From assembly GCA_030595715.1 (NCBI GenBank), contig JAUVCN010000003.1, positions 1-32,000 on the forward strand: a stretch of 32,000 nucleotides of DNA. Direction: 5' to 3'. This document shows, one piece after another, positions 4,701 through 21,431 of this stretch. The position numbers and the translations under genes were made by a program. Position 1 is the stretch's first letter. Every line of letters starts with the position of its first letter. The DNA is from Thermoplasmatales archaeon (GTDB taxonomy: Archaea; Thermoplasmatota; Penumbrarchaeia; Penumbrarchaeales; Penumbrarchaeaceae). The notes beneath the pieces are model-generated. The model ran no database searches, was not told where the DNA came from, and saw only the letters and a list, made by a program, of their open reading frames with translations.

Positions 4701-4830
4701 TTCCACTGACAGTTGCTGTAACATCCCTGGTCCCCGATCCTTCGGAAAGGGACATGAAAGGAGCTGAGATCAATAATGATACGATGAACAGGATACCAGC
4801 GGTTCCCGAACCCATATATCTGGCCAACAT
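1783..4830 (-). CDS. Large type-I membrane-anchored surface protein: CarboxypepD_reg-like/Ig-like and PKD-like repeats, thrombospondin-type-3-like Ca-binding repeats, C-terminal TM anchor
   Basis: 1015-aa ORF with an N-terminal hydrophobic signal (GILFIVSLLISAPFMSLS). It has repeated beta-sandwich starts such as VSGTVVDTDGSPVANAEVML and IEGYVADGSSPVVGVVIMI. PKD-like units include GTYDITLTMTDGQ, VKVMDDDGG and LVRIFDEDGG. DxDxDG repeats are present (DNDEDGMPRWWE, DPDLDGLINLHEF, DTDDDGMPDKFE, DLDLDGVSNLDEY). The C-terminal helix LFLILIMTGLLLALGTIVLIL is followed by RRK. By my manual count there are about 30 N-x-S/T sequons. Confidence 0.85.
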   Translation of the reverse strand: MLARYMGSGTAGILFIVSLLISAPFMSLSEGSGTRDVTATVSGNVVDGVASPITGVTVIAIFGGTTILNATWTNASGEYEMEIEIPSGPSDILFVFQKDGYFEGHNETSVSGGSNNIGEHQMYVIPTEDEQVSGTVVDTDGSPVANAEVMLEYNGVEGRHEYNNLTGTGGGFSFIVFPGEYHVSVKKEGIDLYGEEFIVEDGSGNNVLSIEVPIIPPLNSSIEGYVADGSSPVVGVVIMIHDLDLQIRSHVLSGPDGYFQLDIWPGNFMFITMFEGYASYHNTIEIEDGANVWNNFSIQKLEIWINGTVNNMDSYPIENMSVQFAMEHTFLQANSVKTDVNGEFSINLPQGKGFLFAMEDDPFETENYDIYFSPEWNLTEDTDVDITLFPAQMNSGLITVIFDNWTSLETSSRMRLPLNSSKAVRTFVDSMMGNCDFIVSEKEEELFRGMLFEDNDDLKEGPFGDSTQQNMTINGNHFDLVPDSLDNVMTNLSGPVQAESNMELQMGSEYGMNGTLEEDTYSIDLLVNSTYREDNEDIKMYLPIPNDWMYLEHSTTTHEMTVEDGSLVVIPGNDPDKEDEIDWEIFTITFVNDSFSAEIEAPDLINEGEEITLNATFIDHIPANSRNYSWEIGSEVANTTLPYLNYSFLENGTYDITLTMTDGQEREFKAFKLVEVLNKAPTVEMMVVGGTNRTFHEGDVIEVKINISDVDADPLLFQWGVQGEWGEARTDSVENRTFEITIPDDGNFTVQVKVMDDDGGFTFDNITVCALNLAPDAAVNLVGLDEFDQLPQGTWMTFNITTFDVPSDTVTVDWQWPGLPSIETESNGSDLNIRFLDPGDHTILVRIFDEDGGEVRRNWTIQVVDAIDFDNDEDGMPRWWETLNSLDDDDPSDASEDPDLDGLINLHEFLNGTDPLKIDTDDDGMPDKFEIDTVGLDPTDDDSAGDLDLDGVSNLDEYLNGSDPTDPNDPKGNDDEYKDNTPLFLILIMTGLLLALGTIVLILTRRKQNSLEYEE

Positions 4831-4887
4831 GAGGTGACAATGTTCGATCGATCCTAATAAATGTTATTGTATCATTGGTTGAGCCGA

Positions 4888-7800: not shown

Positions 7801-7926
7801 GTTTCCAGAAGATGTTAAAATTGGAATTTGAATCAGCAAGGAAATGATGATCAAGATCACGCCAAAGGTCCGAGATATGCTATTTTTCAAGGTTTCCACC
7901 TGCTCCATTCGAAGTGATGGTTCCAT
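4888..7926 (-). CDS. Peptidase C25 (gingipain)-like surface protein with Ig/cadherin-like repeats and C-terminal TM anchor
   Basis: 1012-aa ORF with a signal anchor (FGVILIIISLLIQIPILTS). C25-type motifs in order: YAIITTEGLSDEFEDLATWRSSTGLKAEI, YILLGGDSEIIPTRY, SDVYYS, KVGRFPV, MPVVYLSSCDSVNF (catalytic Cys context, codon 6775..6777). The C-terminal part has Ig/cadherin-like repeats (VSPVNDPPRI) and the TM helix LYLILGIIVAILLLAVIGVIF. Confidence 0.8.
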   Translation of the reverse strand: MEPSLRMEQVETLKNSISRTFGVILIIISLLIQIPILTSSGNSIGMSEVETRSLKEVLPQSLKYAIITTEGLSDEFEDLATWRSSTGLKAEIFTIDGQDSILSGRSGADDAEKLLEAINEIYGSSGGSLEYILLGGDSEIIPTRYLWANASRWGYDDTYLSDVYYSSPETEWDADGDGRYGERDDIEIVGVENLSFPLKVGRFPVSNSTEALRMVRNVIEYESDPEPGNWTKKGVIATSLMERPNVLNDPNTTEDEGFDPYKDNAYKAFANYTKRYLPRALDLTEFHDYTEYEGGLYSNTTDGFNVGDIPGALNEGCSFFTFAGQSYYDIDYGHSPPIAYSLAQYIDPNGLMSGGGAFAEALTYEDNWNLTNGGKMPVVYLSSCDSVNFSSPGDTSLENLVYAPNGGAICLIGSTGVSWRGEGVDYSLGNWYLLSKFWQNMIGTHMPGDSLYWLKQHYIDSKWDEIATKEVLLIELYTYNLLGDPAIHAWIGDPEELMVSTAESDLYAGGDIHTVRATNPIGSPIPSLLVTMYLEDTDEVFTALTGPDGYADVPTFFSTGGNVTVSVTGKNYIPHISYVTALDEPMDLEVDGSSMSISPLPLTEGTTATLSFSIKNVGGRDAENVTAMVIPGDAPDDINDWSLPYHSTTISISKGDTVELDVMVDPMRSWKRISVGVISSQVENDLLNNIGSIVMEVNARPRFLSIGLLEMEEDAPGGGVFDLSRNVYDPDDDEKTLTYSMATGAPEWCMLVGSDLLVKPPSNWSGTFDITLRVSDGLSEDITTASIFVSPVNDPPRIIGILDNYTASVDIPFSVVLQMTDAEGDLIEVSMNTTLERLKISGSTLRIVPYSEDVGTHFVQITIEDDQGGNATYSFMLEILAPSGRLHFSEPSIHLPDARTGSKFSYKINIEGDLVPGARFSDDTHLFDIDPETGEIEFEPSGQDIGEHWITITIVSGNTTIERTFHLEIEAGQKENTTLYLILGIIVAILLLAVIGVIFWSGPKVEQYGLEE

Positions 7927-8099
7927 TAACCCCGTGATATATATTATAAGACTTCCCGTTCGTATGTCGAACGGTTCTACAGGTTAAGGCTTATAACAAG
8001 GTATATAACCAACTTCTTATTTAGGGCGTTCTCACGGGAGAAACAGGGTCCCTATCCAGGTCCATACCTGATGGGCCCGGGGTCCCTGGCAATATGCTT

Positions 8100-8174
8100 G
8101 GGCCCGTGGCCTAGCCAGGATATGGCGCCGGCCTTCTAAGCCGGATGTCGAGGGTTCGAATCCCTCCGGGTCCG
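8100..8174 (+). tRNA. tRNA-Arg (anticodon TCT)
   Basis: Hand-folded cloverleaf. Acceptor GGGCCCG/CGGGTCC. Anticodon stem CCGGC/GCCGG with loop CTTCTAA (anticodon TCT). T-arm GAGGG-TTCGAAT-CCCTC. Discriminator G. CCA is not encoded. Confidence 0.85.
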
Positions 8175-8210
8175 CTGATATATCCCGCAGAAAAAAAAAG
8201 AGGCTACCAA

Positions 8211-8315
8211 ATGAAACGCAGCTCACGTGCATGGAAGAAAAAAGGGAACATGCGGTGGAAGTGGCGCAAAAAGAGAATGCGCCGCAGGAAAAGAGCCGCC
8301 AGATTGAAGAAGTAA
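8211..8315 (+). CDS. rpl41e: Ribosomal protein L41e (34 aa, below the ORF-track cutoff)
   Basis: ATG..TAA encodes MKRSSRAWKKKGNMRWKWRKKRMRRRKRAARLKK. The extremely basic RWKWRKKRMRR core matches the eukaryotic L41 peptide (MRAKWRKKRMRRLKRKRRK...) and the archaeal L41e N-terminal KRSSR-WKKKG extension as I recall it. It sits between two tRNA genes. Confidence 0.75.
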   Translation: MKRSSRAWKKKGNMRWKWRKKRMRRRKRAARLKK

Positions 8316-8387
8316 TTCTATCTCGGTCCTGTTGGTAGGTTCTTGTATTCATTCTGAAACTCCATTGGTAGTCTGATAGAACCCTTC

Positions 8388-8595
8388 GGGGGCATGGTGT
8401 AACCAGGTAGCACAATGGGCTCCAGTTACGAGAATGATTGGAAACGGGTCTGCTGAAGACCAGGGACGCTTGGTCGATGATGATTGACTGGAGCGATGAC
8501 CCGTAAATGAGCCTAGAGGTCTGTTGGCCTCAGCTACATACGCTCAAACGTAGGTGATACCCGTTTGTCTGGGTTCAAATCCCAGTGCTCCCACC
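8388..8595 (+). tRNA. tRNA-Trp (anticodon CCA) interrupted by a ~133-nt intron (8426..8558) at the canonical 37/38 position
   Basis: The 5' exon is GGGGGCA-TG-GTGT-AACCAGGTA-GCAC-A-ATGGG-CTCCAG. The 3' exon is A-CCCGT-TTGT-CTGGG-TTCAAAT-CCCAG-TGCTCCC-A(CC). The acceptor (GGGGGCA/TGCTCCC), D, anticodon (ATGGG/CCCGT) and T stems all pair. Intron boundaries are inferred from the cloverleaf and I did not verify a bulge-helix-bulge fold. Confidence 0.8.
8434..8499 (+). ncRNA. Box C/D-like guide RNA inside the tRNA-Trp intron (guides aimed at tRNA positions 39 and 34)
   Basis: Elements in order: AUGAUUG (8434..8440, degenerate C), guide 8442..8449, CUGA (8453..8456, D'), AUGAUGA (8477..8483, consensus C/C'), guide 8485..8494, AUGA (8496..8499, degenerate D). 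Guide 2 pairs 10 bp with 8419..8428, and the 5th nt upstream of the D-like box faces C34 (8422). Guide 1 pairs 8 bp with 8559..8566, and the 5th nt upstream of D' faces C39 (8560). Confidence 0.6.
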
Positions 8596-8612
8596 TATTG
8601 ATCCTTATTATT
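8580..8612 (+). repeat. Direct repeat copy 1: 3' end of tRNA-Trp plus 17 nt of flank (att-like)
   Basis: TCCCAGTGCTCCCACCTATTGATCCTTATTATT. It recurs at 8927..8959 with 1 mismatch in 33 nt, and its first 17 nt recur at 8764..8780. Confidence 0.8.
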
Positions 8613-8645
8613 TTTGATTTTAAAATAGGTGCCTTAGAGACGCAA

Positions 8646-8658
8646 TGGGATTTGAACC
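8646..8658 (-). repeat. Inverted copy of the tRNA-Trp T-arm (GGTTCAAATCCCA)
   Basis: The reverse complement of 8646..8658 is identical to 8572..8584. A further direct T-loop fragment TCAAATCCCAGT at 8738..8749 is identical to 8575..8586. Confidence 0.7.
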
Positions 8659-8664
8659 GAAGGT

Positions 8665-8711
8665 GGTTGAGCATTAGGCAATCCATCATCAACGACATAT
8701 AATGCTCAACC
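8665..8711. repeat. Perfect 12-bp inverted repeat with 23-nt spacer
   Basis: GGTTGAGCATTA (8665..8676) pairs with TAATGCTCAACC (8700..8711). An 8-bp hairpin follows: GCAAAATC-tct-GATTTTGC (8715..8733). Confidence 0.8.
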
Positions 8712-8763
8712 TGAGCAAAATCTCTGATTTTGCGGAATCAAATCCCAGTTAACACTTTGAATT

Positions 8764-8780
8764 TCCCAGTGCTCCCACCT
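8764..8780 (+). repeat. Direct repeat copy 2: 17-nt tRNA-Trp 3' end fragment
   Basis: TCCCAGTGCTCCCACCT is identical to 8580..8596. Its CCACCT end forms part of the left arm of the 12-bp inverted repeat at 8775..8821. Confidence 0.75.
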
Positions 8781-8821
8781 TTCTTCTTTCGTCAATTTCA
8801 TTAAGCTACGAAGAAAGGTGG
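8775..8821. repeat. Perfect 12-bp inverted repeat with 23-nt spacer
   Basis: CCACCTTTCTTC (8775..8786) pairs with GAAGAAAGGTGG (8810..8821). Confidence 0.8.
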
Positions 8822-8839
8822 TAAACATTAATTGCATAC

Positions 8840-8921
8840 GATGAAAAGATAATAAATAGAAACTGGTTCGCTTTTCATCTCACCTCCCTAACTTTGGTAT
8901 CGTCAATTAATTGACAGTTAG
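8840..8921. repeat. Two further inverted repeats, each with a 22-nt spacer
   Basis: GATGAAAAG (8840..8848) pairs with CTTTTCATC (8871..8879). CTAACT (8888..8893) pairs with AGTTAG (8916..8921), enclosing the 14-nt perfect palindrome GTCAATTAATTGAC (8902..8915). Confidence 0.7.
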
Positions 8922-8926
8922 AGGGG

Positions 8927-8959
8927 TCCCAGTGCTCCCACCTATTGATCCTCATTATT
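8927..8959 (+). repeat. Direct repeat copy 3: tRNA-Trp 3' end plus flank (att-like)
   Basis: TCCCAGTGCTCCCACCTATTGATCCTCATTATT is identical to 8580..8612 at 32 of 33 positions. Confidence 0.8.
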
Positions 8960-8995
8960 CATAATCGAAAATATATTCATTTGATCTGTAATGGA

Positions 8996-9805
8996 TCAAA
9001 CATTGAACTTCTCGAGGAAATGAGAGATCCTCATGTTCGGTTTGCCAGGGTCCTGAGCCCTGATAACGATGTATTCGAGCTTCCCCCCATACTGCTCGGC
9101 AGTGGATTTATGCGATGAAATGATATGAGGGATATTCTTGTAATTGGACCATGTCTCGAACCTGTGTTTATGACCGAACAGAAGCAGCTCACAGTTCCCC
9201 CCGAGGACCTTCATGAGTGCATCTGCTCCCTTCAGTTTCAATCCTATGGTTCTCTGAAAAGGATGATGATGAAGGATCACGACCCTCATCTTGTTCACAG
9301 AGTGGATCTGAAGGGCCCTTAGCAGAGCGTTCCTCTGGACCTCGCTCACATATCCTTCAGCGGTGCCAACTTCATCATTGGGATCCCCGGTGTCAATACC
9401 AATGAACACGATATCGTTGTAATGCCAGATCCCTATCCCATCGATACCCTTTGGGTCCTGTTCGGGTCCAAGCCAGTTCCCTCTCTCCTCTTTCCATCCA
9501 TGAGGTGTTCCCAGATATTCTTTCCAGGTCCTATTGGCCTTTGGTTTTCCGATGATACCGAACCAGTTGTAATCATGATTTCCGGGAACGGGGAGGACTG
9601 GGTTGGTCTTTGACAGGTCCTTGAGTATCGACCTTGCCTTCCTGCACTGACATCTTGCACCGGAGTCTGTTATATCTCCGGAAATGATCACTGGAACTTT
9701 AGGGTAGAGCTTCGATATCTCCGCGACCAGCTTCTTTGCCATTCTGGTCTCCTTGAATCCACGTCCGATGTGCAGGTCACTCAGGTGTATCAGCATCTGT
9801 TCCAA
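8996..9805 (-). CDS. Calcineurin-like metallophosphoesterase
   Basis: 269-aa ORF with the full ordered motif set: HLSDLHIG (DxH), ISGDITDSG (GDxxD), PGNHD (GNHD/E), ILHHHP (H), FGHKH (GH). No signal peptide. Confidence 0.85.
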   Translation of the reverse strand: MEQMLIHLSDLHIGRGFKETRMAKKLVAEISKLYPKVPVIISGDITDSGARCQCRKARSILKDLSKTNPVLPVPGNHDYNWFGIIGKPKANRTWKEYLGTPHGWKEERGNWLGPEQDPKGIDGIGIWHYNDIVFIGIDTGDPNDEVGTAEGYVSEVQRNALLRALQIHSVNKMRVVILHHHPFQRTIGLKLKGADALMKVLGGNCELLLFGHKHRFETWSNYKNIPHIISSHKSTAEQYGGKLEYIVIRAQDPGKPNMRISHFLEKFNV

Positions 9806-9995
9806 GCTATCATCTCCTTTCTAACTTTTATCCCACACTCTTTTCCCAATTGTCACTTTTAACCCAGGGGCTCAATTCGTATTGTAAGAATATATATGTT
9901 CTTATCGATCTTCCCTTGTCGATCAATTGAACAGCTGAATTTTCTTGATATTATTACAAACTATTTCCACTGTCCTGTTGTCTTCTTTTACATTA

Positions 9996-12900
9996 TTAGT
10001 CCAACCAATCATCATCGGTATCATCCTGTGGTCCATCCCTAAGTCCGATCACCAATTCATTCTCCTTTCTGGATCTAATGATCATGTAAAGTACAACAAT
10101 GACAACCAATGTCCCGATCAAGGAGGCCAGTAACACCATCCAGGTGATATCATCGTCCTTATCTTCAGGTATCGGATCTCTACCACTACCGCCTCCTCCG
10201 TCGCCATCGTCATCAGGATCGAATACTATGATCGAAACCGAGGTGCTTACATTTTGGCCGGGGATACCATCATCAACTGTGAGAGTGATCTTATGATGTC
10301 CTACCGGCAAATATGTTATGACCTTTCCCCCTGAGATAATATATCCTGTAATATTTGACCACCATGTGATACTGAGTTCTTTATTCTCATCGGGATCATA
10401 TGTTGTACCTGTAGAATCCAGCAGGATCGGGGAGTACATCGAGAATTCCGACCCGTTCTCAGGAGATAGAATGAACGGGACAGGGGGGAGGTCGAAAATT
10501 GCAATTGAAATAGAGATCAAATGCTCCATTGAAGTGCCAATGTTTCCTACAATATCAAAAGCTCTTAACTGGAGATAATAGCTCCCCTCTGCCAGCAATA
10601 GACTTCCATTTACAATGATATCATGACCATCGGTTCCCGAACCAAAATCACTCCAATCCGACCAATCATTGTTTCCCTCTTTGATCTTTATTTCAACGGA
10701 ATCCCCGTCGACACCAGAACCACCCATGTCCTTTATTCTCGCTGAGATCATGAAAGGACCGTCTGGTGGCAAAAAGAGATCCGGACCACCCATAACTTCG
10801 ATCTCCGGCCCATCAATATCCACATTCAAGCGAAATAGGTTGGAAATTGAAGGATTTCCAATGATATCTGATGCCTCGAACTGAATATCGCCTTTCCAAT
10901 CAGGATGAAGTATGGGATAGCAAACAGTTGTCACTTTATTGTCCAATTTGACATTGTCCGTGGGAATTGTCCAATCACCAATGTTTCCAAATCGATCGAT
11001 CAGACGATAATGAACAGACCCCGGATCCACACCGGCACCAACACCCAGATCTGTTGCCCTATCCATGATATCAACTACCACCCTGGGAACAAGAGAAGTT
11101 GTCCATTCTGGTACCTGGATCGGATAAAAAACCGGACCTTCAGTATCCATTCTACCAAAATTATTGATCACATCCGAGGACCGTCCAACCCAATCTACAA
11201 GTCTGGCGTTGATCTCGATCCTTTCAAGGGATGTGTCGAGATCAAATATCGACTCATTTGTTGGATAGAAAAGATGGTTCTCATCAATTGTTGTGAACCT
11301 GCCATCATCCGACCATTGAAGATCAATACCTGATAGAGGAAATGGATTTGTGGGTTCATGGAAAAAGTAGTGGACAACTATGCTGTGATATGTATCAGGT
11401 TCGAGATCCAATTCTGATGATGTGGGGCCTCCTTCGATCGATGTCCATGGAATGATCTCCTGGCCGTCCAGTTCAAGTCTTGCAATGCTCTTCCCGGTTA
11501 GTTTGAATGAGATAGGATAATCCCATGGATTTCTTATCCAACCGTGCCATCTGATCGAAAAATCATTGCTTGGTACGTTTTTATCATATGGACCAAAACC
11601 ATCATTCCAATTGAAATCAATACAGGGATCGATCATCTCTTCTCCGATAACCTTGAAATCACTCCTTTGCCAGTATGTTCCGAAAAGGCCGCCCTGTGCC
11701 ATAACGGGATGGAATCCTCCTTCATTGATCTCCATCTCGATACTGTGGACTCCCGATCCTTCCGGATCCATGTCCTCAGAAATGGTTGCATTAATGGCAA
11801 TGATCGTTCCTTCACCGGAAATTATATTTCCAGATCCCAGGGACCCTTGTTTGAACGTTACATCATTTGGAGGTAATGGTTTTTCCTTATCAACCCTGAT
11901 CTCTATCTTTTCAGCTCCATGGAATCCAGGCAGGAAACCTGCCGGATAAGCAGGTGGGAAAACACTTTCATTGAGCGATGGAGTTAGAATTATTTCTCCT
12001 GTTTCCAGGTCCAGAGCATCAAAGAAAAGATCCTCATCATCGGAAAAGATGTTATCGATAGATCCGCCGGATGAGGAGATCACTCCTATTCCGATATCCC
12101 CTGGTTGGATCTTGATCTCGGGATATTTCAGGTGAACAAGGTTCAAATTTGTGATCATCAGGTCTGCATTCCCCGAACACCAGTCCCACCTATGTCTGAT
12201 CTCTTCATCAATTCCCTCTATCTTCCAATTAGATCCCAAAAGGACATCTTTCTCAACATTTGATATTTCATTGAAAACAGATGTGATGGAATTTCCTTCT
12301 GAATCGATCAACTCAACTATGATGTCGAGGGGTCCCTTTATAGGAATGTCCCAACCAATATTCAGGTCTATCATGCTCCAACCAATATTGGCTGTTCCAC
12401 CAAGAAAACTGTCGATAACTTCAATGGAACCACGATCATCTCCATCGATCCGAGCAGATGAGGGATCGATCGAAATATTGATCATTGAACCATCCGGATC
12501 CAAAGAGAGAATGACCTCCTTCACTTCACCCCAACCCTTCGTATGTGTGTAGGAGAGGTTCATACGCAACGGACCCGATCCAGGCAAGATACATCCATCA
12601 TGGAAACCTTCACCTGACAGTATTAAATCGTTCACTCTGAGGTTCTGTCCCATTATCACATAGACCTCGCCGCATTCGGGTCTGAAATTATCTGTACCAT
12701 CTCCCCCTGGTACGGATATCATCAGATCGTATACACCATCACCGTTCACATCTCCGGTTTCAAGTTGCCATCCCGTGGAATCACTTGGATCTGTCCCCTC
12801 AACCGTGAAAACCTTTGATGGGTAGTCCAATTTCACCAATTTACCATTTGATGGAAATGCGTCAGCGGTCTCATGAACAGTGACTACTCCTGCACTCCGA

Positions 12901-14198
12901 ACCACGGGCAAACCATTGCCCCCCATGTGCTTTCCCGCAGCAGATACAATGAGCTCCTGTTCCGAATCTCCATCGATATCTGCGATCTCGAACATCCTAC
13001 CCAGTCTGTCTCCCGAATAATCAGGATCTCCCGACACTCTTCCGGTTGCTCCGTAGATGACCAGGTCCGCCCCTGCATTCGATTCCATGGTAGATGGAAA
13101 GGATTCCGGAATATCCCCATAGAACACATGAAGAGCTCCACAATCATACTCCATGTTCAATGGATCATCAGATCCTGGGGAGCCTGCAATAATATCGTCC
13201 TTCCCATCCTGATCAATATCGATCACCTGAATGGAAAATCCCAGGTAATCTCTCTCCGAACTTCCCCTGATCCAGCATCTTGCAGCATCTCTAGGATCAA
13301 TTGTCGATTCATTCTTGAGTGAAGATGCATTGAATATAAGAAAGACCGATCCGGTGAGGTCAATATCCCTCCCATCATCGTCCCAGTTGTTCGCTCCGAT
13401 GATCAGGTCCGTATTGCCATCACCGTCTATGTCACCGGTTTCGATGGCCGAGCCCAGCATCTTGAAATCGTTTTGTGTGATGGTGGTTTCTTCACCTGTA
13501 CCCCATTGAATATTCACACTGTGAGGGGGTGGACTCGGAATTATTGGATCATTGAAGAAATATCCGGATATCACCTCAACCAAACCGTCCTTATCCAGAT
13601 CCTCAATGATCAAATGGTCGTCATATTGGTAATTGTTCGGAAACTCGGGTCCGCCTCCCAGGAAACTCCGATAAGGGTTCAAGGAATCTCCATCTCTCAT
13701 GTAAATCCTTCCTGAACCTTTGTATCTGGCCATTGCCATGTCCAGGTCACCATCACCATCGATATCCCCCACATCGAATGATGTTGTACCGTATATCGGG
13801 TAAGAATGATCAGGATCTGCCGAAGATAGGTCGATCGATCCATTTATGTGGGATTCCCCTCCTGAGAATGCGATCATTCCCGCATTTCCGGGTAGAAGAC
13901 CGTAAGGAAACACAATGTCATCATATCCATCACCATTGATATCCTTCAGATCCAAAAGAGAGCCGAATCCCGACTGGTCCCCTCCGTTATAAATCCCTGT
14001 AAAACTAATATCTGCTACATCTTCAAGTATCTGGATCCCTGAATTCGAGGTTTCAGCATTTACCTCATACTCATTGATCGGAATGGGAATGTCAATTAAA
14101 GGCAGGGTCAAATGTAATACTAGCAGCAATGCGATACCAGTTATGATTACTGATTTCTTCGGAATGGGCCCCCCTCCGAATATTACATATCCATTCAA
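9996..14198 (-). CDS. Giant surface protein: FG-GAP/VCBS (integrin-alpha-like) repeats, PA14 domain, Ig/PKD-like repeats, C-terminal TM anchor
   Basis: 1400-aa ORF with a signal anchor (VIITGIALLLVLHLTL). There are at least 7 Ca-binding FG-GAP cores (DINGDGYDDIV, DIDGDGDLDMA, DLDKDGLVEVI, DIDGDGNTDLI, DIDQDGKDDII, DIDGDSEQELI, DVNGDGVYDLM; approx. 12640..14020). A PA14-like segment is GLFGTYWQRSDFKVIGEEMIDPCIDFNWNDG...FSIRWHGWI...LELDGQEI (approx. 11400..11700). A PKD-like unit is HKITLTVDDGIPGQNVS. The TM helix is WMVLLASLIGTLVVIVVLYMII, followed by an acidic tail. Confidence 0.85.
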   Translation of the reverse strand: MNGYVIFGGGPIPKKSVIITGIALLLVLHLTLPLIDIPIPINEYEVNAETSNSGIQILEDVADISFTGIYNGGDQSGFGSLLDLKDINGDGYDDIVFPYGLLPGNAGMIAFSGGESHINGSIDLSSADPDHSYPIYGTTSFDVGDIDGDGDLDMAMARYKGSGRIYMRDGDSLNPYRSFLGGGPEFPNNYQYDDHLIIEDLDKDGLVEVISGYFFNDPIIPSPPPHSVNIQWGTGEETTITQNDFKMLGSAIETGDIDGDGNTDLIIGANNWDDDGRDIDLTGSVFLIFNASSLKNESTIDPRDAARCWIRGSSERDYLGFSIQVIDIDQDGKDDIIAGSPGSDDPLNMEYDCGALHVFYGDIPESFPSTMESNAGADLVIYGATGRVSGDPDYSGDRLGRMFEIADIDGDSEQELIVSAAGKHMGGNGLPVVRSAGVVTVHETADAFPSNGKLVKLDYPSKVFTVEGTDPSDSTGWQLETGDVNGDGVYDLMISVPGGDGTDNFRPECGEVYVIMGQNLRVNDLILSGEGFHDGCILPGSGPLRMNLSYTHTKGWGEVKEVILSLDPDGSMINISIDPSSARIDGDDRGSIEVIDSFLGGTANIGWSMIDLNIGWDIPIKGPLDIIVELIDSEGNSITSVFNEISNVEKDVLLGSNWKIEGIDEEIRHRWDWCSGNADLMITNLNLVHLKYPEIKIQPGDIGIGVISSSGGSIDNIFSDDEDLFFDALDLETGEIILTPSLNESVFPPAYPAGFLPGFHGAEKIEIRVDKEKPLPPNDVTFKQGSLGSGNIISGEGTIIAINATISEDMDPEGSGVHSIEMEINEGGFHPVMAQGGLFGTYWQRSDFKVIGEEMIDPCIDFNWNDGFGPYDKNVPSNDFSIRWHGWIRNPWDYPISFKLTGKSIARLELDGQEIIPWTSIEGGPTSSELDLEPDTYHSIVVHYFFHEPTNPFPLSGIDLQWSDDGRFTTIDENHLFYPTNESIFDLDTSLERIEINARLVDWVGRSSDVINNFGRMDTEGPVFYPIQVPEWTTSLVPRVVVDIMDRATDLGVGAGVDPGSVHYRLIDRFGNIGDWTIPTDNVKLDNKVTTVCYPILHPDWKGDIQFEASDIIGNPSISNLFRLNVDIDGPEIEVMGGPDLFLPPDGPFMISARIKDMGGSGVDGDSVEIKIKEGNNDWSDWSDFGSGTDGHDIIVNGSLLLAEGSYYLQLRAFDIVGNIGTSMEHLISISIAIFDLPPVPFILSPENGSEFSMYSPILLDSTGTTYDPDENKELSITWWSNITGYIISGGKVITYLPVGHHKITLTVDDGIPGQNVSTSVSIIVFDPDDDGDGGGGSGRDPIPEDKDDDITWMVLLASLIGTLVVIVVLYMIIRSRKENELVIGLRDGPQDDTDDDWLD

Positions 14199-14516: not shown

Positions 14517-16238
14517 TTAGTTCTTCTTGCGATAGATGCCGTAACCACCGGTCCTCAATATCAAAGGAACATTTCTAACGGCTTCACGATCATATTCCCT
14601 GATCTGTTCTGAAAGGTCCTCCCATGGAACAAGGTATGGGCTTTCCAACCTATCTCGATCCTTCCCGAGGACCCAGCCATTGAGATATTTCTCGGCATTC
14701 CACCTGAAATGTTCCATTTTTGCAAGGAATTCCACCTCATCATCCTTGAATCTCTTCAGGGCTTTATTGGAGATGCCTTTTTTCTTGAATGCTCCGATCG
14801 CCCGGACCTTTACGCTGATATGATCGGCTTGCTGGCGGTTCGATTCCTTGAATATCTCCGGTAGACGTTCCCATGGATTGTGGCTAACTTTGTTATTGTC
14901 AAGGGTCTTCTCCTTGATCCTTGCCCTGATGAACTTTTCATGGATCCATTTGGCAACCCTGTCCATCTCCCCACCAATTATTACCGATTCCGTGCAGATC
15001 CTTTCCAATGTCTTGAAAACGTACAATCTGGCATTCCTCTCGGTATTTTCAAGCTCGGATTGCAGAATGGATGCAAAGTCAACCTTTTCATTGATACTGA
15101 TTATCACGGGAACCTTTTCCATGATCGCCCTGGTATTGAGATGATATCCTGTTGTAACGTTCTTGATATCATCCTCGAACGAGAGGAAGACCGTACTGGG
15201 AACCGATCTGAGAGAGGACTCCACCTTCCTCCAGTTGAACAATCCTGAATTATCCATATCGATCTCGATGAACTCCAACTCGATATTGTCAATATTCTTT
15301 ACCTCTGGGAACCTGTCATGGAAGATCGTTCCCTTCGTCTTCGCCTTTTCATCGATCACGGTGATCTGGAGCTTTCTTCCATCAGGGTAATGTCCAATTT
15401 TCAATGCCTGGATGACAACGCTCTCACCGAGGCTGTCAAAACCGAATACCAGAATATGACAGGGTTTGCCCTTCTCTTTCGGTAAATATGCATCCGGAGG
15501 GTGTTTTTCGAACAATCTCCTGGCGCTGTATTCGAAGATATTGAAATACTTTACAGATGATCCGCTTGTATCAAGTGATCTGTGGCAGCTCTTTTCGATC
15601 ATATCACAGAATTTCTTGTTGGATAGATGTATGTAACTTTTCACATTGCTTCTCCTTTTTGACGCTTTGACCACTTTATCACAATTGACCGCGATCTCGG
15701 TGTTGGTGATATCATTGTCAGAAACTCCCAGCAGATATTTTGCTTTGAGTACACCTGCTTTATACAGAGTTTCGGATTCGGTAGCATCTCCAATGATCAC
15801 ATAGATACCCTTGGCTTTGCAGGAATTGAGCAGAATATTGCCGGGATCCTTCTCTATTACAACGATCCTGTTCCTTTTCTTGAAATCCAGGGCCATGAGA
15901 TATCCTTTATGGCTCAAGCCGCAAATGATCACATGACCCTTCCAGGATCTGATCTTTATCAGGTTGATCTTCTCGCTGAAAACATTCATCAGGGTAACAA
16001 AGACGATGTACCATGTCATGAGGGGCAGGATGAACCTTGCTGCCTGGAGCTCCCATGGAATATCTCCATCTGTTTGAACATTGATGAGAAACAGCCTCAT
16101 AGTGTAATAGAATATATCAAAGACCGTTTTTGTTTCCGAATAAAGAATGTAATAGCCCCTAAAACCCAAAATGAAGCCAGCCATGGCGATCGAGAAGATC
16201 AGCAGCCATTTGTTCTCCTTTATCCACCTGAAGATCAT
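14517..16238 (-). CDS. Membrane protein: 2 TM helices + two TrkA-N/RCK-like Rossmann domains + two C-terminal RyR (ryanodine-receptor) repeats
   Basis: 573-aa ORF. TM1 is WLLIFSIAMAGFILGFRGYYIL and TM2 is AARFILPLMTWYIVFVTLMNVF. Rossmann 1 is HVIICGLSHKGYLMALDFKKRNRIVVIEKD. Rossmann 2 is HILVFGFDSLGESVVIQAL...ITVIDEK. The RyR-like repeats are at 14793..14969 (VAKWIHEKF...NPWERLPEIFKESNRQQADHI) and 14553..14741 (FLAKMEHFRWNAEKYLNGWVLGKDRDRLESPYLVPWEDLSEQIREYDREAVRNVPLIL). Confidence 0.85.
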   Translation of the reverse strand: MIFRWIKENKWLLIFSIAMAGFILGFRGYYILYSETKTVFDIFYYTMRLFLINVQTDGDIPWELQAARFILPLMTWYIVFVTLMNVFSEKINLIKIRSWKGHVIICGLSHKGYLMALDFKKRNRIVVIEKDPGNILLNSCKAKGIYVIIGDATESETLYKAGVLKAKYLLGVSDNDITNTEIAVNCDKVVKASKRRSNVKSYIHLSNKKFCDMIEKSCHRSLDTSGSSVKYFNIFEYSARRLFEKHPPDAYLPKEKGKPCHILVFGFDSLGESVVIQALKIGHYPDGRKLQITVIDEKAKTKGTIFHDRFPEVKNIDNIELEFIEIDMDNSGLFNWRKVESSLRSVPSTVFLSFEDDIKNVTTGYHLNTRAIMEKVPVIISINEKVDFASILQSELENTERNARLYVFKTLERICTESVIIGGEMDRVAKWIHEKFIRARIKEKTLDNNKVSHNPWERLPEIFKESNRQQADHISVKVRAIGAFKKKGISNKALKRFKDDEVEFLAKMEHFRWNAEKYLNGWVLGKDRDRLESPYLVPWEDLSEQIREYDREAVRNVPLILRTGGYGIYRKKN

Positions 16239-16261
16239 TGAAATACATCTCCATGGTTCAA

Positions 16262-19200
16262 TTACGGGGCTCCTTCATTCATCCTGGGTGGTTCCTGTGG
16301 CTGCGCTACGTTCTCGGCAGCAGGTAATTCAGGCAAAGTATCCTTGCCGGGTTCCTTCAGAGCTTCCGGAGGTTTTGAAGCATTTATACCTGGCCGATCG
16401 CCCCCATCAATTATCGCATCGGGGGCCAGCATGGTATCGATGGTCTTTGTCAGATTATCCAGATGGTCCGAGATGGGCTCATTGAACGCATCCAGCCAGT
16501 GGAGGGCACTGATATAATATTCCAGCTCCTCGGACGGCATAATATTTGATATTCTGAACAGGATGATCGGAATGTCCTTGTTCACAGCTCTCTCGATCTC
16601 CCTTAGAACCTGCTGGGATTCGTTGGATTCCGAGGAGAATACAAGGACCATCACTTTCGCGGAATTTATTGCCATGATGATAGATTTGGCCCAGGCCATT
16701 CCAGGGATCACATCTCTGGGGGCGATCCAGCATTTGTAACCGCCCTCCTCCAATTTATTGCAGATGGAATAGGCGGTATTCTGATCTGTATGCGCATAGC
16801 TGATGAACACATCTTTTGGACCTTCTACCGCTTTCTGTCCGATCAATCTTATGATCTTTCTCCTCTTGCGAATGATGAAAAATACCACCAATCCAATGAT
16901 CACTGCTATCACAATGGGCGTGGTCAGAAGGGTGATCAATAATGCCATGGTCCCCTCATCTTTTTTGGCCTTGGTTGGATCCGTTCCATCCAAATACTCC
17001 TGAAGATCGGTCTTTCCATCGCCATCCTCATCGTTGGTAGACGTGTTCAGCAACGGATCCAATCCATGGTCTATCTCCCAGACATCAGGCATCAGGTCGT
17101 CATCAGTATCGGGATCGTCCAATGCTGTTCCGTTCTCGTACTCTGCGATATTGGTCAATCCGTCATTATCAAGATCGTTCATTGCATCTTGTTGTTCGTA
17201 TATATTCAGACCATATTGGATCTCGACAAGATCGGGGATGCCATCTTCATCAATATCGTTTGTGGAAGATAATACGGTGATCGGGAATGTTGTCTGATCA
17301 AGATTCCCTTCCCCATCCGTAACGGTGACCGTCATTGTATATTCACCGGATTGATTTGTGTATCCCTCGATGACGGACCCATAATACGTGGTTGGAAGCC
17401 CACTCCACTTGATCTCCTGTATCCCAACGTTATCGGTAGCATTGATCTGGAAAGAGAATGGGACCCCTGAATATATCGTCACACCGTCCAATTCTCTGAT
17501 GGTCGGGAGGTCGTTATCGGTTATGGTAACGATGCGAACCGGTCCGGTTATCGTGTTTCCCGAGGAATCGATCAGTTCAATGTCGTAAGAGAAGGAGGCT
17601 ATGGAATGATCCAGAATGATCGACAGGCTCCAGGTCCCATCACCATCATCCAACAAGGGAATGTCCGTCCCATTCAATGAACCATGTGACCACGTAGCGG
17701 TCACCATCTCCAGATCGACCCTATCGGATGCTGTGATCTCGAAGATGAACTCATCACCGGTTGTTCCCGTTGAACTGCTGTCATCGGCTTCCAGGACCGG
17801 GTCATCATCATCAGATATCAAGATCATCCTCATTTGAGTAATACCCCAATTTCCCTGGATATCACTGGCATGAAAAATATATTTCAAAGGATCTGTAGAA
17901 TCATCTGGCAATGTGATATCAAGATAATATATTGAGGTTCCAGTCATGGATACATTAATGACATCTCCGTTTCCAAACCAGTATTCAACAAATACACCAC
18001 TCACACCGATGTTATCGGATACGGTGACATTGAAAAGATAGGTATCTCCAGTCGTTCCAAGGTCGGGGCTTCCATCAACGAATAATATCCTATCGTTATC
18101 ATGGATGGTCACGATGGCCTCATCTGTTTGGGCCCAATTGCCCTGAAGATCAGTTGCATGGAAGATGAAATGCAAAGGATCGGTGGAATCTGCTGGAAGG
18201 GATACTATGTCATAAGTATAGGGTCCATCTCCGGCCATTGTGACATTGATCCTTGAGCCTGATCCGAACCAATACTCGACAACGACTGTATTGATGCCGA
18301 TATTATCGAATGCAATTGCTGAAAATCTATAACTATCTCCGGTCGTACCATTTGAAGGTACGTTGCCTGTGAAGATGGGTCTGTCGTTATCTGTGATCGT
18401 GATCGTCTTTTCTGTTGTATATGCCCAGTTTCCCTTTTCATCAGAGAAATGAAAACTGTAATGAAGCCCATCGGTCGAATCGGACGGGATATCCAATTCA
18501 TATGAATATGGGCCGCTCCCTTCCATTGAAATATTGACAACCGATCTTGTTCCAAAGTGGTAATTTACGAAGACCGTATCAATGCCAATATTATCATTCA
18601 CACTGATGTTAAAAAGGAACGTATCGCCTGTTGTTCCTTCGGCATCACTTGTTTCCTCATCCCATGTGGGTTTATCATTGTCAGTGATCATTACAGACTT
18701 CTCGACCATCTGTGCCCAATTTCCTTGAGCATCAGTGGCATGGAAAATATAGTGTAGATCATCGGTTGAGTCTGCTGGTAAGGTAATATCAAGATAATAT
18801 ATTGAGGTTCCAATCATGGATACATTGTCGGCCTCTCCATTTCCATACCAGTATTCAACATATACCATCTCAACACCGATGTTATCATTCACACTGATAT
18901 TGAAAAGGAAAATATCGCCTGTTGTCCCCACAGTATCACTTGATTCAATACCCCAGGTCGGCCTATCATTATCAGTGATCAATACAGATCTTTCGACAGT
19001 AATGTCCCAGTTACCTTGAGCATCACTGGCATTGAAAAAATAGAAGATCGGATCGGTAGAATCTGCAGGAATATTTATTGTCTTCTCGAAATAAAGATTT
19101 CCAATTATGTTCGCTATATGGTGGGATCCAGTACCAAACCAATACTCAACATATACACTAGTTACCCCAATATTATCTGTCACGGTAACATTGAAAGTAT

Positions 19201-20803
19201 ACTGATTTCCAGTAGTACCAGTCGTTGGACTTTGATCAGTGAATGACGGAGCATCATTATCTGTTATGATGATAGTTTTCTCTTTCTCGGCCCAGTTGCC
19301 TGCAGAATCACGAGCGGAGTAAATGTAGTGGATCTTTGTAGCGTTTATTGGAATGAGTACTGAAGAGGTGTTGGTTCCAGACGATCCTATCATGGTTGAA
19401 TTAATATGATTGCCGAAATTGAACCAATACTCAACATATACTACCGGGACATCAATATTGTCGGTCACACTAATTGAGAAACTGAAGGTCTCTCCAGTTG
19501 TCCCAGAGGTATCGCTACCGTCAACACCAAACACCGGTTTATCATTGTCTGTTATTGTTATATCGGTCTGGGCCATGTTGGCCAAGTTGCTTGCAGAATC
19601 ACGGGCGGAGAAAATGTAGTGGATCACGGCAGCATCCGAAGGAACTGACACGGATGAGGTATACGGACCGCTTCCGGTCATTATAGAATTTGTATGAGGA
19701 CCATCCCCAAACCAATATTCTACAGATGCTACAGTCACGCCAATATTATCGGTCACTCCAATAGAGAAACTGAAGGTCTCACCGGTTGTCCCGGTTGTAT
19801 CACTGTCATCTGTCCCAAACACGGGTTTATCATTGTCTGTTATTGTTATATCGGTCTGGGCCATGTTGGCCCAGTTGCCTGAAGAATCACATGCGGAGAA
19901 AATATAGTGGATCACAGCAGCATCCGAAGGAACGGTCACTGAAGAGGTATTCGTTCCGGATGATCCCGCCATAGTTGAGTTTGTATGACTTCCCGTCCCG
20001 AACCAATACTCTACATACACACCAGGTGTATCGATATTATCGGTCACACCAATTGAGAAGTTGAAGGACTCACCAGTAGTGCCAGAGGTATCACTACCAT
20101 CAATCCAAAACACCGGTTTATCATTGTCTGTTATTGCTATATCGACCTGGGTCATGTTGGCCAAGTTACCAGCAGTATCATTTGCGTGGAATATGTAATG
20201 GATCACAGCAGCATCCGAAGGAACATTCACTGAAGAGGTATTCGTTCCAGATGATCCTGCCATAGTTGAGTTTGTATGACTTCCCGTCCCGAACCAATAC
20301 TCTACATACACACCAGGTGTATCGATATTATCGGTCACACCAATAGAGAAACTGAAGGTCTCACCAGTTGTCCCAGAGATATCGCTACCGTCAGTGCCGA
20401 AGATGGGTTCATCGTTGTCCGATACCACCCTGCTGTACCGGCCTGATTCTATTGTATTCGTTCCATCAGTTCCATTATAGGTCCAGTAAAGATAATCTGT
20501 ACTATCATCCGGGAAATCATTTGCTGAAATTGTATGTGTGAAGGTACCAGATGTATTGGACATGGTATTGATCGTTGTTGTTGACGATCCGATACCGAAC
20601 CAGTATGTGACATCAACTGTAATATCATCCTCTCCTCCTGAACTATCCACCTGAAAGGTGAATGGATCACCGGTAGTCGCAAAGGTTGTGGAGGATTCAT
20701 TGGAGAAAGTTGGAGCACCTTGGGCAAAGAATGTGAATAAAACCGTCATTGATGAAAGGACCAAGATCAAGCCAATTACCAAAAAAACTACTCTCTTGTA
20801 CAT
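16262..20803 (-). CDS. Giant receptor-like surface protein: 11 tandem ~97-aa repeats + Ig/PKD-like unit + thrombospondin-type-3-like repeats + TM helix + cytoplasmic TIR domain
   Basis: The ORF is open to 20959 (1565 aa). The likely start is the ATG at 20803, with a GGGTG SD-like motif 7-11 nt upstream and a signal anchor directly after it (MYKRVVFLVIGLILVLSSMTVLF). The TM helix is at 16871..16948 (MALLITLLTTPIVIAVIIGLVVFFII) followed by RKRRK. The TIR-like module is at about 16480..16813: DVFISYAHTDQNTAYSICNKLEEGGYKCWIAPRDVIPGMAWAKSIIMAINSAKVMVLVFSSESNESQQVLREIERAVNKDIPIILFRIS. Confidence 0.9.
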   Translation of the reverse strand: MYKRVVFLVIGLILVLSSMTVLFTFFAQGAPTFSNESSTTFATTGDPFTFQVDSSGGEDDITVDVTYWFGIGSSTTTINTMSNTSGTFTHTISANDFPDDSTDYLYWTYNGTDGTNTIESGRYSRVVSDNDEPIFGTDGSDISGTTGETFSFSIGVTDNIDTPGVYVEYWFGTGSHTNSTMAGSSGTNTSSVNVPSDAAVIHYIFHANDTAGNLANMTQVDIAITDNDKPVFWIDGSDTSGTTGESFNFSIGVTDNIDTPGVYVEYWFGTGSHTNSTMAGSSGTNTSSVTVPSDAAVIHYIFSACDSSGNWANMAQTDITITDNDKPVFGTDDSDTTGTTGETFSFSIGVTDNIGVTVASVEYWFGDGPHTNSIMTGSGPYTSSVSVPSDAAVIHYIFSARDSASNLANMAQTDITITDNDKPVFGVDGSDTSGTTGETFSFSISVTDNIDVPVVYVEYWFNFGNHINSTMIGSSGTNTSSVLIPINATKIHYIYSARDSAGNWAEKEKTIIITDNDAPSFTDQSPTTGTTGNQYTFNVTVTDNIGVTSVYVEYWFGTGSHHIANIIGNLYFEKTINIPADSTDPIFYFFNASDAQGNWDITVERSVLITDNDRPTWGIESSDTVGTTGDIFLFNISVNDNIGVEMVYVEYWYGNGEADNVSMIGTSIYYLDITLPADSTDDLHYIFHATDAQGNWAQMVEKSVMITDNDKPTWDEETSDAEGTTGDTFLFNISVNDNIGIDTVFVNYHFGTRSVVNISMEGSGPYSYELDIPSDSTDGLHYSFHFSDEKGNWAYTTEKTITITDNDRPIFTGNVPSNGTTGDSYRFSAIAFDNIGINTVVVEYWFGSGSRINVTMAGDGPYTYDIVSLPADSTDPLHFIFHATDLQGNWAQTDEAIVTIHDNDRILFVDGSPDLGTTGDTYLFNVTVSDNIGVSGVFVEYWFGNGDVINVSMTGTSIYYLDITLPDDSTDPLKYIFHASDIQGNWGITQMRMILISDDDDPVLEADDSSSTGTTGDEFIFEITASDRVDLEMVTATWSHGSLNGTDIPLLDDGDGTWSLSIILDHSIASFSYDIELIDSSGNTITGPVRIVTITDNDLPTIRELDGVTIYSGVPFSFQINATDNVGIQEIKWSGLPTTYYGSVIEGYTNQSGEYTMTVTVTDGEGNLDQTTFPITVLSSTNDIDEDGIPDLVEIQYGLNIYEQQDAMNDLDNDGLTNIAEYENGTALDDPDTDDDLMPDVWEIDHGLDPLLNTSTNDEDGDGKTDLQEYLDGTDPTKAKKDEGTMALLITLLTTPIVIAVIIGLVVFFIIRKRRKIIRLIGQKAVEGPKDVFISYAHTDQNTAYSICNKLEEGGYKCWIAPRDVIPGMAWAKSIIMAINSAKVMVLVFSSESNESQQVLREIERAVNKDIPIILFRISNIMPSEELEYYISALHWLDAFNEPISDHLDNLTKTIDTMLAPDAIIDGGDRPGINASKPPEALKEPGKDTLPELPAAENVAQPQEPPRMNEGAP
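17520..20715 (-). repeat. In-frame tandem coding repeats (period 288-291 bp, 11 units) inside the TIR-tailed surface protein gene
   Basis: Unit boundaries are marked by I-T-D-N-D-(K/R/A)-P. Conserved motifs are GTTG, (V/S)TDNIG(V/I), VEYWFG and GNWA. The string ATCATTGTCTGTTATTG recurs at 19541, 19829 and 20120. Units between about 19440 and 20420 are near-identical at the DNA level. A higher-order 870-bp (3-unit) similarity links about 17915 to about 18785. Confidence 0.85.
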
Positions 20804-21209
20804 TGAAACACCCACTTCAGACCTGAACCTTCTATAGGAACATATTTCGATACTCGGGACACAGTCGGTCGATCTGACCGATATTACCAAACAAAAAGGA
20901 TTCCGCATCCGTATCAGGAATCGCATTATCCTTTTCAAATAAAAGTAGGAATAGACCACTCAGGGGAGATGTATCTCTTCATACCTCTATTTGGAGATGG
21001 CCTTTCTTAATAGGATCAATTGATATATATTCTTAATCGAACACATTACTGGCTGTAACGGACCTGCCCGCCCATCGATCCACGATGGACAGATACCCTA
21101 TGGGATCGGATTCATTCGATAGATCTAAAAACAATATAGAAGGTGGTCACTGCTCCTGTGACTATCCCGCTCGCAAAAGCCAGGAATACATAGAAAACGA
21201 TAGGATCGC

Positions 21210-21431
21210 TCATCTACGTCCCACCGGGGAAAAATTGACCGGGTCTGCTCTTCTCATGTCAAGGTCCCCCTCATCATAATGATGTCTCAACAGTGAAGAA
21301 ATGATCGATCCGCCTTCACTCTCTTTCAATCTTCTTGAGCAACCAGGACACCTGTATACGGTTATCAGGCCCCTGAAGATGCTATCTTTGTGTGATTCTT
21401 CCATTCTTGTACCACATCGGTCACATCTCAT
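21210..21431 (-). CDS. Small zinc-ribbon protein (73 aa), hypothetical
   Basis: MRCDRCGTRM...YRCPGCSRRL has two CxxC pairs 22 residues apart. A GGAGG motif lies 8 nt upstream of the ATG. The gene is on the same strand as, and upstream of, the TIR-tailed gene. Confidence 0.5.
   Translation of the reverse strand: MRCDRCGTRMEESHKDSIFRGLITVYRCPGCSRRLKESEGGSIISSLLRHHYDEGDLDMRRADPVNFSPVGRR

Follow-up and report, generated by a model that had tools for sequence, protein, structure and literature searches.

A stretch of 32,000 nucleotides from a Thermoplasmatales archaeon (GenBank assembly GCA_030595715.1, contig JAUVCN010000003.1, positions 1 to 32,000), referred to here as the window, carries two adjacent minus-strand genes that form a real and conserved module. 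The upstream gene, gene A, encodes a protein of receptor type whose large ectodomain evolves fast and whose tail is a TIR domain; the downstream gene, gene B, encodes a channel-like membrane protein with two Rossmann/RCK lobes and a C-terminal RyR/R12-like domain. The balance of the evidence tips slightly towards a TIR-to-RyR signalling module built on the logic of Thoeris, in which a signal-making TIR protein would be coupled to a ligand-gated effector. Judged from the genes, the pair can be read as a variant of the Thoeris kind in which the sensor and the effector are new and the TIR is of receptor type, its role in defence being putative.

A conserved two-gene module

Two large minus-strand open reading frames (ORFs) occupy positions 14517-20959 of the window, from which the following features were assigned:

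16262 to 20803, minus strand: gene A, a 1513-residue type-I-like surface protein (ORF, translation, Pfam, hydropathy and orthologue lengths)
16239 to 16261, minus strand: spacer between the genes, 23 nt, with a Shine-Dalgarno-like GGAG 10 nt ahead of the gene B ATG
14517 to 16238, minus strand: gene B, a 573-residue membrane protein with a two-transmembrane-helix (2TM) P-loop-like domain, RCK1, RCK2 and a C-terminal RyR/R12-like domain

The open frame of gene A runs from 16262 to 20959, with the stop codon TAA at 16264-16262, and its most plausible start is the ATG at 20803, which gives a length in keeping with the 1515 and 1519 residues of the orthologues at loci L001 and L002. Gene B begins with the ATG at 16238 and its stop codon ends at 14517. 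The two genes are probably co-transcribed, given the 23-nt spacer with its Shine-Dalgarno-like motif, the lack of a terminator and the long intergenic regions on either side of the pair (approximately 860 nt upstream of gene A and 318 nt downstream of gene B, the latter with TTTATTTTT). The initial annotation had described a same-strand pair separated by 23 nt with neither a T-tract nor a hairpin, and this description holds: a sequence scan of the spacer found no run of four or more T and no terminator-like site, and the RNA spanning the junction folds no better than shuffled sequences do (z = -0.28), with no significant hairpin. In three gene B orthologues a GGGAG lies 8 nt ahead of a TTG start. 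A sigma-70 promoter scan, whose model is uninformative for an archaeon, returned 19 sites against 19.4 expected.

A giant gene encoding a transmembrane (TM) helix and a TIR tail lies directly upstream of gene B, on the same strand, in five of five loci (the window, L001, L002, L089 and L090). Among these, gene B identity is 51-56%, the gap between the genes is approximately 23-124 nt and the named sources are Thermoplasmatota. The window, L001 and L002 each have other genes around the pair, L089 and L090 being short contigs whose flanks are not comparable; the two-gene module proposed in the initial annotation is upheld as a conserved one. At L001, the gene B orthologue is closely followed on its downstream side by two genes for TrkH K+ transporters (L001:7163-10278), which neither the window nor L002 contains.

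The association extends well beyond these archaea. Eighty loci from species-representative genomes were scanned with locally built TIR, DUF4062 and RyR profiles, and the statistics refer to the 67 non-redundant loci in which the B gene is close to full length, drawn from at least six phyla. TIR genes are approximately 7-fold denser within 1 kb of gene B than at 1-10 kb (14.2 per 100 kb compared with 0.9-3.5 per 100 kb). Within 1 kb of gene B, 15 of the 67 loci have a TIR gene, nine have a DUF4062 gene, usually of the DUF4062-STAND-TPR/WD40 type, and 22 have one or the other; a TIR, a DUF4062 or a second RyR protein is present in 34. DUF4062 is reported in 2026 preprints as a TIR-like NADase that makes ADP-ribose (ADPR) (10.64898/2026.05.01.722283). 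The B genes that adjoin a TIR gene fall into eight clusters at 40% identity and 12 at 50%, and their TIR partners sit on either side of gene B and on either strand, in distant bacterial phyla as well, a recurrence that supports the pairing proposed in the initial annotation. The partners include TM receptors, TIR alone, TIR-AAA_16, TIR-NB-ARC, TIR-FHA, TIR-FGE-sulfatase, TIR-Sel1, Asp-protease-TIR and a membrane CHASE2-TIR. Given these unrelated TIR architectures, their placement on either side and either strand and the divergence of the lineages, a repeated functional association is indicated. Inherited synteny as the sole cause of the adjacency was considered and rejected, since the adjacency recurs in 8-12 divergent lineages. 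Around the bacterial relatives are STAND, TIR and DUF4062 genes of the kind usual in conflict systems. Compact bacterial two-gene versions occur at L023, where gene B is joined by a 371-residue TIR protein across a 27-nt gap, and at L066, and L003 is a further compact bacterial operon.

The CHASE2-TIR gene, encoding 669 residues, is found in a Verrucomicrobia metagenome-assembled genome (L049:4762-6771), 147 nt downstream of a B-family gene. CHASE2 is a membrane-associated extracytoplasmic sensor domain, and this protein would therefore be a second, independent receptor-type partner.

Gene A, a surface protein with a TIR tail

Two features of gene A define its topology and its likely activity:

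16859 to 16957, minus strand: single TM helix, residues ~1283-1315, followed by RKRRK (Kyte-Doolittle scan and sequence)
16424 to 16828, minus strand: TIR domain, residues ~1326-1460 (Pfam TIR_2 at residues 1332-1442, E 1.2e-20)

Hydropathy indicates an N-terminal hydrophobic anchor at residues 1-30. This is followed by an ectodomain of approximately 1250 residues composed of ~95-residue Ig-like repeats and TSP3-like acidic Ca-binding repeats, with weak Pfam matches of the repeats to DUF4625 and the LapB repeat. The RKRRK sequence after the TM helix places the TIR domain in the cytoplasm by the positive-inside rule. Between orthologues the TIR domain is 67-70% identical, compared with 28-47% for the repeat part of the ectodomain.

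The initial annotation had raised the question of a catalytically dead TIR tail, and the sequence does not have that appearance: the conserved catalytic glutamate, E1402 (codon 16598-16600), aligns with the glutamate in the SxWxxFE motif of oyster TIR-STING, and this column is glutamate in all 18 TIR domains that adjoin B-family genes. The gene A TIR looks catalytically competent. A search with the TM helix and TIR tail gave approximately 950 matches, mostly small bacterial TIR_2 proteins of 45-61% identity; a TIR of so common a type is uninformative on the product that it makes. Its motif was not found in the accessible part of the supplement to a survey of Thoeris systems (10.64898/2025.12.03.692087).

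In topology only, gene A resembles the Toll-like receptors, since one TM helix joins an ectodomain rich in repeats to a TIR domain in the cytoplasm. It differs from them in its repeats, which are Ig-like/DUF4625-like and TSP3-like rather than leucine-rich (Pfam gave no leucine-rich repeat hits in the ectodomain), and in its TIR domain, which, to judge from the glutamate, would be an enzyme that consumes nicotinamide adenine dinucleotide (NAD+) and not an adaptor scaffold.

Gene B, a channel-like protein with tandem RCK lobes

The architecture of gene B was derived from an alignment of 25 homologues and an AlphaFold2 (AF2) monomer model with a predicted local distance difference test score (pLDDT) of 86.8 and a predicted TM-score (pTM) of 0.81; counts of residue conservation were taken over 86 family members. 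Four domains are distinguished:

15942 to 16238, minus strand: membrane domain, residues 1-99 (DSSP of AF2 models, loop alignment)
15489 to 15941, minus strand: RCK1/TrkA_N Rossmann lobe, residues ~100-250 (Pfam TrkA_N at residues 103-195, E 1e-14, above the gathering score)
14994 to 15467, minus strand: RCK2-like second Rossmann lobe, residues ~258-415 (AF2 secondary structure, Foldseek)
14529 to 14969, minus strand: RyR/R12-like four-helix domain, residues ~424-570 (Pfam RyR at residues 492-568, E 1.5e-10)

The model shows a channel-like fold and two Rossmann/RCK lobes in gene B, in agreement with the channel-like membrane domain and two Rossmann folds noticed in the initial annotation. The best Foldseek match of the whole protein is GsuK, a channel with tandem RCK lobes (E 4e-10, over as many as 531 aligned columns), and TrkA rings, MthK and Slo1 follow, the matches ranging from E 4e-10 to 1e-7. 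In sequence, RCK1 matches the Kch RCK domain (1id1) and KefC among PDB entries. The second lobe is not called by Pfam and is visible in the AF2 model and in the Foldseek match to GsuK. The glycine motif of RCK1 is ICGLSHKG in gene B against a family consensus of GLGxKG, with the acidic E129 closing β2, and that of RCK2 is GFDSLG against GFGxMG, with the acidic D296.

The membrane domain comprises TM1 (residues 10-33), a short helix of re-entrant type (39-51), a variable loop (52-61) and TM2 (62-86). The pore loop, INVQTDGDIP, varies across the 86 homologues, and only Y..(R/Q)LF and PWxL..ARF (PWEL..ARF in gene B) are conserved in the membrane domain of the family. When the membrane part was modelled alone (pLDDT 87), nearly all of the top Foldseek matches were P-loop channel pores (NaK, the MthK pore, Slo2.2 and iGluR, at a statistically non-significant E of 0.4-1.6), which is suggestive of a resemblance to such a pore.

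The family is large and uniform, with 1,774 cluster representatives (50% identity) at E<=1e-30 in a library of 1.84 billion proteins, and among the matches listed the best ones are mostly 570-630 residues long. It was not found in the viral contigs of IMG/VR.

The RyR domain as the likelier sensor

The RyR domain of gene B scores 41.6 bits against PF02026, for which the gathering cut-off is 27.4, and its sequence matches in the PDB are Repeat12 of RyR1/2/3 and 3nrt from B. thetaiotaomicron. Its marked residues are H433, W456, the S466-NRQQADH motif, E509-H510-x-x-W513, W522 and D550. The initial annotation had held that the RyR domain is not known to bind cyclic ADP-ribose (cADPR), and this statement is contradicted by phage proteins: in two 2026 preprints, RyR/R12 domains from phages are shown either to cleave 2'cADPR, 3'cADPR and cADPR or to bind them, with affinities from nM to sub-uM (PMC13232231; 10.64898/2026.06.04.730250). 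The phage protein RyDEP (PF02026) cleaves 2'/3'-cADPR and contacts it through H75, W78, H100 and D117, and its sponge-type homologues, which keep the same His and Asp without catalysis, bind 2'/3'-cADPR at nM affinity (PMC13232231). RyR Tad gp68, also from a phage, has a dissociation constant of 43 nM for 3'cADPR and binds 2'cADPR and cADPR too, its contact residues being H129/W132, K147/H154 and K170/D171 (10.64898/2026.06.04.730250).

The alignment of the B family with gp68 by hhalign has a probability of 95.4% (E 2e-8) and sets H129, W132 and D171 of gp68 opposite H510, W513 and D550 of gene B. These residues are near-invariant in the family (H510 in 86 of 86 members, W513 in 83 and D550 in 75). 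A further motif, (K/R)xSNRQQADH at residues 464-473 of gene B, is almost invariant in the cellular RyR proteins of the family loci, with N467 present in 86 of 86; the stretch opposite in gp68 is KDSARAGVRF, and the motif has no clear phage counterpart. It may reflect a different ligand or ligand specificity. A tblastn search of phage genomes with the RyR domain of gene B gave two weak matches only and recovered neither RyDEP nor gp68.

Within TIR-rich loci the RyR domain is a common C-terminal module on otherwise unrelated proteins, namely the channel-like protein and NUDIX, RelA_SpoT-SLOG and AAA proteins. One sensor fused to many outputs is also the pattern of CARF, SAVED and SLOG domains. 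Given that the pocket residues are kept, that the Rossmann glycines are degenerate and that RyR is shared across effectors, the RyR domain is the likelier sensor of the two candidates in gene B.

The individual fusions are RelA_SpoT-TPR-SLOG(LSDAT_prok)-RyR, NUDIX-RyR, NUDIX-RelA_SpoT-RyR and AAA/MoxR-RyR (~850 residues), and they lie at L051:3268-5757, L086:1805-4324, L085:1580-2494, L003:8050-11064, L063:5742-8687 and L027:11709-14252; their NUDIX and RelA_SpoT parts match the PADLOC candidates PDC-S07 and PDC-S33. In Verrucomicrobiota a stand-alone RyR ORF of 90-111 residues lies directly upstream of the B-family gene (L055:9935-10228, L058:9890-10225, L070:3-275 and L071:9935-10222), overlapping the start of that gene at L058. 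In these ORFs the ligand residues of the phage sponges, four in number, are all present (AHDxW ... KKHP ... YDR), and the ORFs could encode a host-encoded buffer, a threshold-setter or an accessory subunit.

The initial annotation had proposed that a TIR-made signal drives the gated membrane protein, with the Rossmann folds as its receiver. Comparative genomics supports the first part well, whereas for the second the RyR domain is the likelier receiver. It is nevertheless conceivable, though unlikely, that the RCK/Rossmann lobes and not the RyR domain receive the signal, either by binding the TIR product or by sensing a fall in NAD+ or a rise in ADPR. TrkA/KTN domains bind NAD(H) and ATP, both lobes of the family have GxGxxG motifs and an acidic residue closing β2, and the closest structure, GsuK, has been solved with NAD and with ADP bound (4gx2, 4gx1). 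In addition, the DUF4062 partners are reported as plain NADases making ADPR. Three observations speak against such a receiver. The second glycine of both motifs is substituted in gene B, by Ser in RCK1 (GLSHKG) and by Asp in RCK2 (GFDSLG), a change that disfavours the binding of a pyrophosphate; conservation is lower in the Rossmann motifs than in the RyR pocket; and a Rossmann receiver leaves unexplained why it is RyR, and not RCK, that is shared with the NUDIX, RelA_SpoT and AAA proteins. The two placements are not mutually exclusive. With RyR as the sensor, the RCK lobes are likely the transducer and possibly a second nucleotide site too.

A proposed signalling mechanism and its alternatives

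In the mechanism proposed for the TIR-to-RyR module, a multivalent ligand outside the cell (for instance a virus particle, a neighbouring cell or damage at the surface) would cluster the gene A receptors and so gather their TIR tails, which would then cleave or cyclise NAD+ to give an ADPR-derived nucleotide at the membrane. This messenger, a cADPR isomer or a relative, would bind the C-terminal RyR/R12 domain of gene B, a 2TM P-loop-type tandem-RCK channel-like protein, and the change would be relayed through the RCK ring to open a cation pore that is probably not K+-selective. The resulting shift in membrane potential or ion content would lead to growth arrest or abortive infection, or else act as a non-lethal signal; abortive infection, which the initial annotation had named beside signalling as the end of the chain, is only one of the possible outputs. 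The identity of the signal, its binding, the gating, the formation of a tetramer, the trigger and the physiological role are all inferred.

A wider proposal is held tentatively, with the balance somewhat against it: RyR/R12 would be a widespread sensor, in bacterial and archaeal cells, of ADPR-derived messengers made by TIR or DUF4062 proteins, joined to interchangeable outputs (an RCK channel, NUDIX, RelA/SpoT-SLOG and AAA ATPases). The operon would be a complete outside-in pathway, in which the messenger from a Toll-like transmembrane TIR receptor gates a RyR-domain cation channel, and the whole would be the prokaryotic counterpart, possibly the evolutionary source, of the link between cADPR and RyR in animals. 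On this view the phage RyR sponges would be copies of a host sensor.

Several points weigh against a TIR-to-RyR signalling module. The window is no defence island, the neighbours of the pair being surface-protein and metabolic genes, and gene B has no PADLOC hit. The loci were found via gene B, so that the density of TIR genes is measured against an internal distance control and not a genome-wide background. No TIR, DUF4062 or RyR neighbour is present in 31 of the 67 loci, and the link of the family to TIR is thus not obligatory; the neighbours in TIR-less loci include nSTAND5, TPR-M48, FHA-GGDEF and GH116 proteins and unknowns, among which Pfam scans gave no further recurrent partner. In the RyR pocket, the phosphate-contacting His (H100 of RyDEP, H154 of gp68) is S533 in gene B, and across the 86 members this column is Ser in 37, His in 24, Thr in 13 and Asn in 10. 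The catalytic dyad of RyDEP (His and Asp) is kept in gene B, which is compatible with hydrolysis instead of sensing. The fold matches of the membrane part fall short of statistical significance, NaK reaching a TM-score of 0.53-0.59. Lastly, there is no TVGYG selectivity filter in gene B and no conserved pore loop across the 86 homologues; the pore, if it conducts, is therefore unlikely to be K+-selective. Gene B as a canonical K+ channel was rejected for want of this filter.

Some of these points suit the possibility that there is no signalling link at all. Gene B would then be a housekeeping RCK-regulated cation channel or a regulator of K+ transport, gene A would be an adhesin whose TIR tail serves as a scaffold or works independently, and synteny inherited within one archaeal clade, with chance elsewhere, would account for the pairing. 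It is consistent with this that approximately half of the B-family loci lack a TIR, DUF4062 or RyR neighbour, that the two TrkH genes adjoin gene B at L001, that databases label the B family as potassium channels and that the window resembles a surface-protein cluster. However, the TrkH neighbours are not conserved, the genes that flank the pair change from the window to L001 and L002 and the density of TIR genes rises ~7-fold within 1 kb of gene B. Across 8-12 divergent lineages the association recurs, the TIR partners being of unrelated architecture and lying on either side and either strand, and an unlinked pair is distinctly improbable.

Least credible, and very improbable, is that gene B removes the TIR signal through a RyR domain working as an enzyme or a sink, resembling the RyDEP glycosidase or a sponge, so that gene B would be a damper, an off-switch or a membrane-anchored immunity factor and not the effector: equivalents of the RyDEP dyad (H510 and D550) are conserved and the stand-alone RyR ORFs beside gene B in Verrucomicrobiota show that cellular RyR domains exist without an effector part, but the dyad is not diagnostic, since the non-catalytic phage sponges keep the same His and Asp, the fusion of RyR to a 2TM and tandem-RCK body in more than 1,700 clusters would be unexplained, and the other RyR fusions carry typical effector modules.

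Comparison with known systems

The nearest described counterpart of the TIR-to-RyR module is type X Thoeris, in which the TIR protein ThsB is paired with the ion channel ThsK and the signal is still unknown (10.64898/2025.12.03.692087). Both have an adjacent TIR protein with a catalytic Glu and an ion-channel-like membrane partner, and the activation of an effector by a TIR-made, NAD-derived signal, as in Thoeris, is proposed here from the genes. The components differ: ThsK has 208 residues, a filter-like TLTYGG motif and neither an RCK nor a RyR domain, with no homology to gene B (hhalign probability 0.2%), and the small soluble ThsB_TIR (PF08937) contrasts with the TIR_2 tail of a 1513-residue transmembrane protein. 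The host of genes A and B, moreover, is an archaeon. Gene B matches no described Thoeris effector (ThsA, ThsC-ThsL) and no PADLOC model, and neither RyR nor TrkA is mentioned in the accessible text and supplements of the same Thoeris survey. In the searchable literature, subscription-only sources excluded, no paper was found that links cellular RyR-domain proteins to TIR systems.

The gene taken as ThsK lies between the two ThsB_TIR genes of the type X locus of Vibrio sp. JCM 19052 (L094:3369-3995); it has no Pfam hit and carries the K-channel-like pore motif TLTYGGFSP. A plasmid search with the type X TIR was also made, and the two best matches inspected were type II (TIR and Macro) systems.

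The RyR domain of gene B shares the PF02026 fold with RyDEP and RyR Tad gp68, and the H-x-x-W and Asp ligand residues are conserved. The viral proteins are small and form soluble dimers, which either sequester the signal or cleave it, in contrast to gene B, where RyR is the C-terminal module of a cellular membrane protein; the phosphate His is replaced by Ser and the (K/R)xSNRQQADH motif stands in place of KDSARAGVRF. With GsuK, MthK and Slo1, gene B shares RCK/KTN lobes, arranged as a single-chain tandem as in GsuK and Slo1 and placed after a 2TM domain of pore-like topology, and it differs from them in lacking TVGYG, in its variable loop, in the extra RyR domain and in an identity of only ~10-18%.

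Cytosolic RyR repeats on a cation channel are also found in the eukaryotic RyR and in the oomycete PKDRR channels (PMC7399828), although the pore families are unrelated to that of gene B and the protein sizes differ by orders of magnitude. For the eukaryotic RyR, cADPR is a long-proposed modulator, and in the archaeal operon a putative cADPR-type synthase, the TIR protein, is encoded next door. That cADPR binds directly to the R12 domain of eukaryotes has, to our knowledge, yet to be proven. The initial annotation had offered the eukaryotic cADPR-RyR connection as a parallel only; at the level of the domain it is now more than an analogy, and beyond the shared RyR domain no descent is claimed.

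Membrane effectors of cyclic-oligonucleotide-based antiphage signalling systems (CBASS) and the CARF-TM proteins of type III CRISPR, such as Cam1, likewise fuse a cytoplasmic ligand sensor to a membrane-perturbing part. Their sensors have SAVED, CARF and SLOG folds and respond to signals other than those proposed here, and we know of no CBASS or CARF-TM membrane effector that uses an RCK ring or a RyR domain.

If the TIR-to-RyR reading is correct, RyR/R12 would be a new ligand sensor in TIR signalling and the tandem-RCK channel-like protein, with its more than 1,700 clusters, a new class of effector. An archaeal TIR enzyme would be wired to an extracellular receptor, a topology otherwise tied to the animal Toll-like receptors. 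The origin of the phage RyR sponges and glycosidases, and what they imitate, would be explained. The operon, which may represent the cADPR-to-RyR axis in prokaryotic form, would offer a tractable model for the old question of whether cADPR-type molecules act directly on RyR repeats.

Surroundings of the pair

Downstream of the pair on the minus strand, positions 1783-14198 of the window hold a run of giant surface-protein genes, with a metallophosphoesterase gene between them:

1783 to 4830, minus strand: CarboxypepD_reg/PKD surface protein
4888 to 7926, minus strand: peptidase C25 with cadherin/Ig domains
8996 to 9805: metallophosphoesterase gene
9996 to 14198, minus strand: FG-GAP surface protein

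Upstream of gene A, within the ~860-nt region, lies an ORF of approximately 73 residues with two CxxC pairs of zinc-ribbon-like appearance (~21210-21431, minus strand).

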